Virus record (IMG/VR): IMGVR_UViG_2703718806_000008
DNA length: 64,000 bases
DNA from: a virus
Taxonomy: Duplodnaviria > Heunggongvirae > Uroviricota > Caudoviricetes
Direction: 5' to 3' (one strand)
Shown: positions 6,001 to 9,000 of the stretch, one piece after another
Layout: the number at the start of each line of letters is the position of its first letter
How positions within the stretch are numbered: the first letter of the stretch is position 1
Position numbers: made by a program

Positions 6001-9000
6001 ACCTCAACCGTTATTTCAAACAACTCCGCCCCGGAAGGAACATCAGAAATAGCCAAAATCACAAGACAAATTCAGGTGCTGACTGAAAAGCTTGGGAAAA
6101 TCTCATCGGAAGAGGGGATGACGACACAGCAGAAAAAAGAAATGGCTGCATTGGTACAGAAGCAAATTGAAAGCCTCAGGGCTCAACTGGAGCAGTTGTT
6201 AAGGCAGCAGGCAGAGAAAAAGAATAAAGACGCGACAGTTCAGCCTGATAAAAAAGAAGAGAAAAAAGACGATACAAATACCGCTGGCACCATTGATATT
6301 TACGTCTAAGTGACAGCCGTATTGTGGCCCTCATCGGGCCACTTTTCGCCATCAGCCTTTTCTTTAAAGACATATTATCTTTGTATCATTTCTGATAGTT
6401 AACATTACAAGATATAAGTAATGGACGCACTCCCAATTAGTCTATTTAAATCGCCACGAGTTTAACTGACAACCCATGATCAATTATGAATTGCAACTAT
6501 TTCTGTAGTCACTTTTGTGGGGACAGTCCACAAAACTGCCAACTTCCGCTTCTTGCTCTTAGCGGACATTAGCATAGGCTATTTACCATAACGCCTCATT
6601 ACGCGCACCGCCCAGACTGACTCAGCGCGTTTCTGGCATATCCCCGGTAAAACAAGTAACAAACCACCCGAAAATGAACACCAGAAACGCGACTTAAGAA
6701 TCTACCCTATGAATGGATATGCACTCAACCGAATCGATCTTGGTTTCAATCTTTTTTATCGGGATCAGGCTTCTTTTTAGGTAACTTCGGGGGCTTAACT
6801 TGCTGATGACTTTGCGTTCGGCGCGTAAGCCAGGGATGGTCAGCTTTAGGTTTAACATAGTATTTTGAGCGTAAATCAATACGGGCATTATCCACTCGTT
6901 CATGGACACTCTTTTCATCATCCAGTGGTATAGGCTCCGGGCCATCAACATACTTTTCCCAGCCCAGCGCTTTCCCGTCATACAGAACGTTAATTTCACC
7001 GTCAAAGTTCTCGCATACAGTAACAACCGAATGCCTAAGTCGATATCCCCGGCCCTCACTGCGTACCTGAAACGCACTGCTTTTGTACTGGAAAGTGAGA
7101 TTTTTAGACAGAACGCGCTTCGCCTGTAGGCTGAAGATATAACCCAGTTCCTCTTCAGAATGGTGCACATCAAGATGAGCATTATCAGTAGTACGAGGCG
7201 ACGTAGCGAACCGGTTGTTATAGGCTTCAATAAAGGTCGGCAACCATGCATTTGCTGTTTCAATATCACTGATATTCTGAAGCCGCATTTCTTTGACCAG
7301 CCTGTCCTGTAGTGTCTGATTGGCGCGCTCTACCCGCCCTTTTGCCTGCGGGCTGTTGGCATGGATTGGCTCGATGCCCAGTGTCTTTATCGCACGAGTG
7401 AACTGGGTCAGCTCACCTTCCCGCTCTGGGTTATTTACCCTGAATATACTGTGTCTATCAGAGTAGAGAGCGAGCGGTACGCCATGATCATTAAGGTAAC
7501 CCCGGAGGGTTTCCATGTAAGCCCGGGTTGTTTCAGCAGGCACAAAACGCAACGCCATCAACGCACTGGTGGTATCATCAATGAAAACGATCAGTGTACA
7601 TCTGGGGCCTCGATTTTCAAACCAGTCATGAGGTGAGCCATCAATCTGGATCAGTTCACCGTAAGATGGTCGTCGCATGCGGCGTTGATATATACGGGCA
7701 ATTTTACGACGGCGTTCACGCCATACCCCCCTCTTCTATCATCCACTTTCTGAGAGTTTCAACGGATAAAGATAAACCGTGTATCTCGCGCAATTTTTCG
7801 CACGCAAACGTAGGTCCAAAATCAGCGTAACGGCCTTTGAGGAGTGAAATTACTGTTGCTCTGAATTCAGTAGAAAAGGAATTATTAGGACGCTTTCCAC
7901 GTCGGTGGGAAACCAGACCAGAAGGCCCTTCATTTCTATACCGTTGCACCAGACGTTTAACCTGCCGAATAGAAATGCCAATGCGTGCCGCAGCTTGTTC
8001 CTGAGTAATATGTCGATTAATTGACTCCTGAATAATCTGAAGTCGGTGGAGTTCCTTATGACTCATCGTAACAGTTTCTTTGGTCATGAAAAATCCCCCA
8101 GAGAATTGTCTGGGGACATTTTAGAATGGTTCAAAGGGGACATTACAGCTTGGTGTTAACAATAGCCTGCTTCTCCTTGCCTTTCGGCACGTAAGAGGCT
8201 AACCTACATGTGTCTGGCATGAAATTGGCCTCAGATTAATGTTAAGCGTCTTGCAGGACGCGTAATGTTAACTGGGGCTTTTCTCTACCTGCCGTTGGTG
8301 TTCGTGCCCGAGGCAGATAGCCTCAAGCACCCGCAGTCATTCTACTTAACTAAGATTTCCCCGCAAACCGTTTTTGTCCAGCACAGTAAATATCCAACTA
8401 AACCAATGGAGTTCGCTGTATTTACCGCCAGTATTCAATGCACATGACCGCCATGAACACCCCTAAAAAAGGGCATTTATATATCCAAATATTAATATCA
8501 AAACATCAACTTTTTCCATATACCTTGCTGTGAAGATGATGGGCATACATGATGCGAACAACCAGAACGCAACAAACAAAAACTGCAATGCGTTTTTCAT
8601 TATTCCTCCTACAATCAATGTGCAATTACATTTAAACACACCTCAATTTGGCCGGACATATAAATATCTAAACCAGAAAAAATCACTTACATAGCGTTAC
8701 AAACTCTTTAGTCTAAAGGTTCATCGTAAAACATTCCCCATACTTATCAGTCCGTTCCGCGCCAGGTAGCTCATTGCCTTATCTGGCAACCTGTAATCAG
8801 GTTTCCGCTTTTTCAGTTGGCTGGTCGTTTAACCGACATAGTTAACCCATTAATCTAGTTGCCGGATGTTGGTGGATTTTCGCGTTTTAGTTGTTCATAA
8901 AAGTGCACAGCTTTAACCAATTCTTCTGATGTAACCGGGACTGGTGAGGCAGTGAATAAGGCCTGAATTTGATAGTTCGGCCTGTCGTTACAATCCTCTT

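Follow-up and report, generated by a model that had tools for sequence, protein, structure and literature searches.

The window analyzed here is the whole 64,000-nt stretch of IMG/VR virus record IMGVR_UViG_2703718806_000008, and our subject within it is hokD, a hok/sok toxin-antitoxin locus of the Qin prophage whose leader and toxin gene lie on either side of a 3302-bp transposon of the IS1202 family. The DNA is E. coli, and positions 6300-8500 of the window were 100% identical to several strains. In one matching strain, the Prokaryotic Genome Annotation Pipeline (PGAP) gives the Qin order as cspI ... rem, hokD, relE, relB, ydfV, flxA, ydfW, followed by "ISEsa1-family transposase (partial)," "HTH protein," phage replication genes, dicC, dicA, dicF, and dicB; DicF was also matched by Rfam in the window. 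A second hok locus, at 32.5 kb, belongs to a separate prophage integrated after ynfF, a context taken from strain JNEC-KY202 (strain 13E0767 lacks this second prophage and was unusable as context). The features on which the argument depends, including open reading frames (ORFs), are as follows.

4596-4690, minus strand: 3′ untranslated region of hokD, homologous to the 32.5-kb locus, with an fbi-like box (GCATCCTCAACGCACCC) and a terminator hairpin.
4691-4846, minus strand: hokD (relF) ORF, 51 amino acids, the "missing" toxin gene of the orphan leader and the third gene after relBE.
4845-4859, minus strand: right copy of the target-site duplication, comprising the hokD Shine-Dalgarno sequence and the first two start-codon bases.
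4860-4885, minus strand: right terminal inverted repeat, GGTGACACTTCTGCTTTGCGTTGACA, 61 nt beyond the relE stop codon.
4860-8161, minus strand: IS1202-family (ISEsa1-type) transposon, 3302 bp, 5′-TGTTAAC...GTTGACA-3′.
4918-5444, minus strand: relB (5205-5444) and relE (4918-5205), which form the invariant right end of all complete elements examined.
5469-6309, plus strand: variable cargo, consisting of ydfV (5469-5774) and flxA (5977-6309).
6746-8087, minus strand: transposase gene tnp, 446 amino acids when intact, with HTH_28/29/32 and rve_3 domains.
8136-8161, minus strand: left terminal inverted repeat, TGTTAACACCAAGCTGTAATGTCCCC.
8162-8176, minus strand: left copy of the duplicated target, GGAGAAGCAGGCTAT (16 nt with the adjacent A), spanning the Shine-Dalgarno sequence of hok plus the first two bases (AT) of its ATG.
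8162-8379, minus strand: orphan 5′ half of the Qin hokD locus, with the promoter and tac-like 5′ end of hok, the region where mok starts, and both the target and the gene of Sok.
32477-32851, plus strand: comparator, the unsplit hok locus of the second prophage.

Local alignment of the reverse complement of 8100-8460 with 32400-32900 paired window positions 8379 to 8162 with 32477-32694 at 196 of 220 positions (89% identity), and its score of 315 compared with a maximum of 30 in 200 shuffles. The Rfam sok model (RF01794), which represents the hok leader as far as the AUG, matched the hok-sense strand at 8161-8332 (minus strand; 99.8 bits, E = 2e-21) and at 32524-32698 (plus strand; 111.5 bits), with the full model (1-157) covered in both regions and scores above the gathering score of 59. 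The hok homology broke at ...GGCTAT/TGTTAAC, after the first two bases of what would be the hok ATG; there the 26-nt terminal inverted repeat of the transposon begins, and the transposase start codon follows at 8087.

The initial annotation, which described about 200 nt at 8161-8420 as a near-identical, inverted copy of the second leader, was correct on the homology and on its end at the hok initiation region, where a mobile element does abut. "Near-identical" was too generous for 89%, and the homology extends to 8379 only, 8380-8420 being Qin-specific flank. The compensatory changes it noted in a stem were borne out, in that an A-U pair in the first leader hairpin of the orphan is G-C in the 32.5-kb copy, a truly compensatory change, while a U-G pair there is U-A, a one-sided change. 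In the second hairpin, a C/A mismatch in the orphan corresponds to U-G in the 32.5-kb copy. As the orphan's C/A in the sense RNA of this hairpin (8210-8270) is U-G in the antisense RNA, and the 32.5-kb copy shows the reverse, each hok copy favors the second-hairpin fold of a different strand. The proposal that the two prophages share a hok cassette held insofar as the second prophage does carry a related hok locus, but these are 89% identical homologs and not a shared copy. Gene conversion or duplication between the two loci was considered and rejected, since only 2 positions distinguish the orphan leader from the Qin hokD allele that other strains have unsplit, versus its 89% identity to the second locus.

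The toxin half of the locus lies 3.3 kb from the leader. hokD (PF01848, E = 1e-23) starts 71 nt downstream of relE, and its homology to the intact 32.5-kb locus, where a 50/51-residue Hok/Gef ORF (PF01848) directly continues the leader, begins at AGGAGAAGCAGGCTATG, exactly where the leader homology stops. The fbi-like box in its 3′ region (~4629-4645) is roughly complementary to the leader 5′ sequence GGGTGCTTGAGG at 8332, now 3.6 kb away, and we take the two to have had the tac/fbi pairing role of the R1 model. The 16-mer AGGAGAAGCAGGCTAT occurs at exactly two sites in the window, 8162-8177 and 4845-4860, which are the two edges of the transposon: the leader ends ...GGCAAGGAGAAGCAGGCTAT/TGTTAAC, and hokD starts ...GTTGACA/GGAGAAGCAGGCTATG. 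We joined the reverse complements of 8162-8800 and 4250-4844 into a synthetic empty site and searched 5426 complete E. coli genomes with it. The join was unbroken, at 98.6% identity, in 266 of them, which have the leader, hokD, and rem but lack relBE, flxA, and tnp, and the window's arrangement of leader and transposon was found in 777 E. coli genomes; strains 13E0767 and C11 are examples of it. In the Qin-like prophage of strain 13P460A, the order is ...DUF977, small ORFs, [leader] hokD, rem, ydfU..., lacking relBE, ydfV, flxA, ydfW, and the transposase, and a four-way alignment showed a single copy of the 16-mer. The unbroken join and the single 16-mer at the empty site indicate that 4860-8161 was inserted into a once-continuous hok locus.

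These results bear directly on the claim that the toxin ORF had been replaced by an IS-like element, an account under which insertion of an insertion sequence (IS) and an adjacent deletion removed the hok ORF. The hok homology does stop and IS sequence does start at 8161, and the hok loci of K-12 are reportedly associated with IS elements; yet hokD persists at 4596-4859 with its ORF, Shine-Dalgarno sequence, and 3′ region, in the same orientation as the leader and directly after the other end of the element, with the target duplicated, and the joined halves recreate a sequence that is intact in 266 genomes. A deletion is thus refuted, and we regard it as vanishingly improbable. The comparison with IS-free relatives that the initial annotation had suggested shows the opposite of a lost toxin gene, namely a locus split by an insertion. 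Its "IS-like element" was rightly called mobile but is a 3.3-kb cargo transposon ending in relBE and not a simple IS, and the parallel it drew with IS-associated inactivation of chromosomal hok loci fails: unlike the haphazard IS damage reported near other K-12 hok loci, insertion here is site-directed, with the same offset in 12 different hok loci (see below). A single insertion of a 3302-bp ISEsa1-type element between the Sok promoter and the hok start, duplicating 15/16 bp, very probably split Qin hokD.

The transposon has three parts, a left module of inverted repeat and tnp, the cargo genes flxA and ydfV, and a right module of relB-relE and inverted repeat, giving the gene order tnp (frameshifted here), flxA, ydfV, relB, relE. 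Its inverted repeats match at 18 of 25 positions, with TGT/ACA tips, and the inner part of the left repeat, CTGTAATGTCCCC, recurs as CTAAAATGTCCCC at 8123 to 8111. In the window, tnp is split by one additional G in the G-run at 7726-7731 into a 123-residue helix-turn-helix (HTH) piece and a 310-residue catalytic piece; the motif GRVERANQTLQ in the ORF at 6746-7678 places a Q seven residues after the catalytic E. The PGAP names "HTH protein," "ISEsa1 family transposase, partial," and ydfW (the tail of tnp) thus all refer to one frameshifted gene. The window element differs from a plasmid copy by seven substitutions and the additional G, and because tnp is frameshifted, the window copy is probably immobile, judging from its sequence. 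RelB (PF04221, E = 1e-32) and RelE (PF05016, E = 2e-13) are encoded by ORFs overlapping by one base at 5205. An inverted-repeat search of 5000-9500 was uninformative and returned no IS-sized pair, the true right end at 4860 lying outside that range.

Elements of the IS1202 family encode a TnsB-like HTH-HTH-DDE transposase with a Q at E+7, and have imperfect inverted repeats of 24-26 bp with TGT/ACA tips, an extra copy of the inner repeat near each end, and characteristic target duplications, which measure 16-28 bp in the long-duplication group (Harmer and Hall, 2023; PMC10132070). All four of these features, in transposase, repeats, inner copy, and duplication, were found in the window element.

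The same unit recurs elsewhere, each time inside a different hok locus. Units of 3.3 kb that are 99.8-99.9% identical to the window element and have an intact 446-residue transposase lie on an IncI plasmid of Salmonella, where TGGAGGGGCTATGAT is duplicated, and on an IncF plasmid of Enterobacter, where GGAGAAGAAGGCCAT is duplicated, each between its own distinct hok leader and its own distinct Hok ORF. Salmonella pSA20064858.1 (NZ_CP030003, 68352-71651) holds an intact copy. A Phytobacter IncF plasmid carries a 12.8-kb version inside a hok locus, with flanks AGGAGAAGTCAGCTAT and the same left and relBE/repeat right modules enclosing 10.5 kb of cargo that includes ncrABCY, chrBA, and other genes. 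We surveyed one genome per species with the intact transposase as query, which yielded 78 loci, and found same-ended elements in Salmonella, Enterobacter, Phytobacter, Kluyvera, and others. Eighteen of the elements were complete, in six sizes from 2.6 to 12.8 kb, all with the same distal repeat. The left module (unit positions 1 to ~1610-1630) and the 0.71-kb right module were constant and the cargo varied, and every complete element ended in relB-relE, with the relE stop codon 61 nt from the tip. Besides flxA with ydfV, the cargo variants were cytochrome b561 with a CDF cation-efflux gene (sometimes with nested IS110/IS30) and YdcZ exporters with LysR.

The left junctions of the surveyed elements numbered 17, and 12 of these lay in hok leaders, all in one orientation. 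At the hok insertions, the left repeat begins 16 (±1) nt after the GGCA of a TAGCC-N14/15-GGCA block, an offset that stays constant wherever the ATG falls (-1 to +8). The 12 hok loci occupied are all different, each with its own duplication, and where the right end was on the contig, a Hok-type peptide begins within or just after the duplicate, adding six further distinct Hok peptides. The 14 other complete elements have duplications of 13-16 bp, compared with 15/16 bp in the window.

In every size variant, cargo is exchanged between the same two internal borders, at unit ~1610-1630 and ~2590 (window ~6530-6550 and ~5572). The plasmid matches covering relBE only (L005, L006) were considered as truncations by IS26 and rejected as such, for their shared border at 2590 is the general border between cargo and right module. 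Locus L009 (688-13530) is Phytobacter pTMTA97301, and it has sister elements at L011, L021, L026, and L028; the cargo of this group comprises ncrABCY nickel and chrBA chromate resistance, b561 with the CDF pump, and YdcZ with LysR, some with nested IS110/IS30. Such elements look like vehicles for metal resistance, homing to the hok loci of IncF leading regions. At L025 (6654-11800, Leclercia sp. EMC7), two different IS1202-family elements lie in tandem at one hok target: the second, with left repeat TGTTAATCCTATGTAGTAATGTCCC and its own transposase, starts after a 10-nt GAAGGCTATG behind the right end of the first.

Where the element ends on the right decides between a single insertion and two other accounts of its origin. 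The ISEsa1 of ISfinder is tabulated in PMC10132070 as 1609 bp with "no TSD (target-site duplication) detected." The mobile unit does not stop at that boundary but reaches the repeat after relE, and unit ~1607-1632 is only the border between left module and cargo. Since position 1609 coincides with this border, the absent duplication of ISEsa1 is most simply explained by a mis-set right boundary, which would account for why the element seemed to make none. We also examined cargo-less relatives from Hahella, Chromatiales, Rhabdochlamydiaceae, and Castellaniella, whose transposases are 49-63% identical and which are plain ISs of 1.36-1.47 kb with 15-16-bp duplications at varied, unrelated sites. 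Their tips are TGTTAG.../...GTTGACA, and their right ends, ...GCGTTGACA or ...GGTTGACA, carry the motif of the window element's right repeat. These shared tips mark the repeat beyond relE as the genuine right end of the family, inside which the enterobacterial elements have gained relBE and a cargo slot.

Two unrelated events could in principle have produced the same arrangement, with a 1.6-kb ISEsa1 inserted beside the leader, a promoter-relBE cassette (flxA, ydfV) separately inserted into hokD in the way suggested for "horizontally transferring TA operons," and the 16-nt repeat arising by coincidence or as a recombination by-product. The 1609-bp length in ISfinder favors this, as does the fact that most plasmid matches share only unit positions 1 to ~1620 with the window; integration of relBE from plasmids into hokD has also been proposed (Ramisetty and Santhosh, 2016, as summarized in PMC6379469). 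Against it, the whole unit from tnp to relBE recurs with a different duplication at at least 4 hok loci, the plasmids sharing only 1-1620 carry other cargo and then the same relBE and right repeat beside a hok ORF, the repeat after relE is the family's own, and the 1609-bp definition gives no duplication. We judge this account extremely improbable. Very unlikely, too, is that the 3.3-kb unit is a one-off, ISEcp1-like transposition unit, formed when a 1.6-kb IS skipped its own end and used a surrogate repeat beyond relBE. There is a weak repeat-like stretch near unit 1609 (window ~6553-6578, ~15/26 matches in a by-eye comparison), but one and the same distal repeat closes 18 of 18 complete elements across their six sizes, the borders of the cargo do not shift, and the distal repeat matches the right repeat of the cargo-less relatives better than the internal stretch does. 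A 1.6-kb copy with its own duplications would favor this account, and there was none among the 78 surveyed loci.

We next consider what remains of the locus on the leader side, where the following features were assigned.

8339-8366, minus strand: putative hok mRNA promoter, TTGCGG (8366 to 8361), N16, TAGAAT (8344 to 8339).
8211-8290, plus strand: putative orphan Sok antisense RNA (~80 nt), with a ~15-nt single-stranded 5′ tail, a long hairpin, and a UUUUCU tail.
8177-8205, plus strand: putative Sok promoter, TTGCCT-N17-TAACCT, entirely within the surviving leader.
8143-8220, minus strand: truncated mok-like ORF of 25 codons (MPDTCRLASYVPKGKEKQAIVNTKL, then a stop), with its ATG at 8220.
8095-8116, minus strand: terminator-like hairpin of 8 pairs with a T-run, shortly before the ATG of tnp, whose Shine-Dalgarno sequence the 3′ arm overlaps.

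We take 8339-8366 to be the hok promoter by homology to R1 hok, and the Rfam sok model starts at 8332, the likely hok +1. Likewise, 8177-8205 is at the position homologous to the R1 Sok promoter, which we presume it to be, and its -35 hexamer directly adjoins the duplicated target (8162-8176). The predicted fold of the orphan Sok RNA (-31.5 kcal/mol, z = -5.1), with a free 5′ tail, hairpin, and U-tail, has what we take to be the Sok architecture of R1. The insertion point thus leaves the hok promoter, the Sok promoter, and the whole Sok gene intact, while the hok Shine-Dalgarno sequence and ORF have lost both their coupling to mok and the tac box at the 5′ end with which the 3′ fbi box would pair. 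The leader is no longer followed directly by a Hok/Gef ORF, and the transposon stands between the tac and fbi boxes, which do not share an mRNA. The mok-like frame, which in the unsplit allele runs into hokD as a 70-residue ORF, exits the leader after the insertion and stops after 25 codons within the left inverted repeat, uncoupled from hok; its 25-residue product gave no Pfam match. As transcripts from the hok promoter would enter the element and meet the hairpin at 8116-8095, this hairpin is a plausible insulator and probably shields tnp from read-through.

The orphan Sok differs from the antisense RNA of the 32.5-kb locus at 5 positions, and its predicted duplex with the 32.5-kb hok leader has an energy of -130 kcal/mol, compared with -153 kcal/mol for the cognate pair. 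Trans-repression of that locus is conceivable.

How such insertions might come about can be outlined as follows. The transposase, or a partner or host factor bound there, would read the TAGCC-N14/15-GGCA block of hok leaders, and integration would follow at a measured distance of ~16 nt downstream and in one orientation, in analogy to ISAjo2 at dif and Tn7 at attTn7. In the window, one side kept the hok promoter, leader, truncated mok, and Sok gene; on the other, hokD kept its Shine-Dalgarno sequence, its ORF, and the fbi region 3′ of it, and came to lie 71 nt behind relBE, the junction known as the relBEF operon. The orphan leader may still make a Sok-like antisense RNA together with a dead-end leader transcript. 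Hok loci could be attractive targets because they mark conjugative plasmids and prophages, and the insertion point may be the sole place where hok is uncoupled without loss of the antidote, with relBE then providing an addiction function of the element's own. Both the targeting mechanism and a residual Sok activity are plausible. We lean, by a little more than an even chance, toward a reading in which the ISEsa1-type clade uses the interval between Sok promoter and hok Shine-Dalgarno sequence as its attachment site, with relBE fixed and cargo exchangeable, and in which the orphan leader is an active Sok donor that damps related hok loci. If so, each insertion would unplug a type I toxin from its own control and rewire it behind a type II toxin-antitoxin module, and K-12 relBE, hokD/relF, flxA, ydfV, and ydfW would be pieces of one such undescribed insertion.

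Several points weigh against the insertion and targeting reading outlined above. Of the 17 junctions, three (L013, L021, L079) fall outside hok loci and another two (L024, L040) are rearranged, because of which the preference for hok targets, though strong, is not absolute. The duplications are non-uniform at 13-16 bp, with an ambiguous terminal A, and one Shigella copy has a mismatch inside its duplication; the tabulated ISEsa1, at 1609 bp and with no duplication, disagrees with our 3.3-kb boundary; and transposition itself is read from sequence comparison. As for the leader, a consensus promoter scan of 8000-8500 called neither the hok nor the Sok promoter, our assignment of both draws on homology to the R1 system, and expression of the orphan Sok is predicted from sequence and fold. 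By eye, two of the non-hok flanks resemble the motif, L013 with GCCCGATCACCG...GGCA-N16 and L021 with TAGCCCATAA...GGCA-N16. At L024 (Citrobacter portucalensis), the left repeat adjoins the reverse complement of a hok start (CATGGCCTTCTTCTCC), and at L040 (Escherichia sp. ESNIH1), it adjoins the extreme 5′ end of a hok promoter (GTAGAATAGCCGTGGCG); both look as if an earlier hok insertion had since undergone inversion or deletion.

The orphan leader might instead be an inert scar, with neither promoter firing usefully and with tnp and the 32.5-kb hok locus unaffected, which we think quite possible, if somewhat short of an even chance. Both hexamer pairs are weak and were uncalled by the scan, the segment has been lost from K-12 and 360 genomes without known consequence, and the orphan Sok has its 5 mismatches to the other locus. 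Counting against an inert scar are the mere 2 differences from a functional-looking unsplit allele, the strongly predicted antisense hairpin and U-tail, and the predicted cross-duplex energy of -130 kcal/mol, against -153 kcal/mol for the cognate pair.

Turning to K-12, hokD/relF there was reportedly described by Pedersen and Gerdes (1999) as a 5′-truncated hok locus without upstream elements, inactivated by a "major rearrangement." We found window 3001-6930 to be 99.9% identical to K-12 rem-hokD-relE-relB-ydfV-flxA-ydfW. K-12 MG1655 is collinear with the window to 6930 and resumes at 11757. Missing from it are the 4.8 kb at 6931-11756, in which lie two-thirds of tnp (the N-terminal part), the left repeat and orphan leader, and phage genes as far as one that is ydaT-like. 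In K-12, ydfW and ydfX flank the deletion junction, which is common to 360 complete genomes. This loss, which took the orphan leader and the left repeat together with most of tnp, is probably why K-12 did not reveal the origin of relBEF. The window has the same gene run but, unlike K-12, keeps both junctions, and hence the K-12 "rearrangement" is a single transposon insertion and the K-12 relBEF "operon" a transposon-target junction. These two junctions explain both the oddity of hokD/relF, a hok gene without a leader, and the placement of relBE, a founding model of type II toxin-antitoxin biology. Co-transcription of relBEF is cited in PMC5120126, and according to the account of Ramisetty and Santhosh (2016) given in PMC6379469, a plasmid relBE integrated into a 70-codon ancestral hokD; a 70-codon ORF is what the unsplit allele shows. 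Further, flxA and ydfV, usually counted as Qin genes, travel with the transposon on Salmonella, Enterobacter, and Edwardsiella plasmids, and are to be annotated as transposon cargo and not as Qin phage genes.

No relBE transposon is mentioned in a survey of Hok diversity from 2026, and our literature search, which did not extend to subscription-only papers, found no description of this transposon or of its hok targeting. We regard the element as a site-specific member of the IS1202 family whose target is new and which carries a fixed toxin-antitoxin module and a cargo slot, the orphan leader being its left junction with the target.

Comparison with known systems helps to place the element. Like R1 and chromosomal hok/sok (mok) loci, the split locus has an Rfam sok leader, a compensatory change in the first hairpins, a start resembling that of mok, a predicted 5′-tailed antisense hairpin RNA, and, here 3.3 kb away, a Hok/Gef ORF followed by an fbi-like box on its 3′ side. 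Unlike them, it has leader and ORF on different transcripts, a mok of 25 codons, and separated tac and fbi boxes, and given this split and the cut in mok, R1-type refolding and mok-coupled activation cannot act on hokD. K-12 sokX is an orphan Sok-like gene without a linked hok, and the orphan leader resembles it as a Sok-type antisense gene with no adjacent toxin ORF, but here the origin is explicit and the cognate ORF persists 3.3 kb off under another promoter. Tn7 has the transposase TnsB, and its TnsD reads glmS and directs insertion downstream. The window element shares with Tn7 at attTn7 related transposase motifs and TGT/ACA ends (PMC10132070), as well as a set distance from the recognized sequence, one orientation, and a recognized element left intact; it differs in lacking tnsA, tnsC, and tnsD genes and in targeting a multi-copy locus of mobile elements in place of a unique chromosomal gene. 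The element also resembles the ISAjo2 group, which homes to dif/pdif, 5 bp from the XerC side. That group likewise has a single large HTH-HTH-DDE transposase with Q at E+7, TGT/ACA repeats, and a second inner-repeat copy, and inserts in one orientation with a fixed spacing to a conserved, mainly plasmid-borne site (PMC10132070). Its target is dif and its duplication 5 bp, compared with a hok leader and 15-16 bp here, and the element described here adds a fixed relBE end module and exchangeable cargo. The hok leader is an orientation-specific natural integration site, presumably read by a single-protein, TnsB-related transposase, and as such a possible targeting system, and by homing to hok loci, metal-resistance cargo moves among IncF and IncI plasmids and prophages.

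Some further observations concern the 32.5-kb locus and its surroundings. The mok-like start of the locus at 32477-32851 (plus strand) is ATA, versus the in-frame ATG of Qin hokD alleles (TTTCATACTAGAC versus TTTCATGCCAGAC), and given the ATA, mok-coupled activation of this locus may be impaired. It also holds an empty copy of the transposon target motif, TAGCCTCTTACGTGCCGAAAGGCA-N16. The other Rfam matches in the window were a cspA-type thermoregulator leader at 895-1287 (minus strand), belonging to a Qin cold-shock gene, the DicF small RNA at 13783-13834 (plus strand), and sRNA-Xcc1 at 29271-29359 (plus strand), near the left edge of the second prophage.

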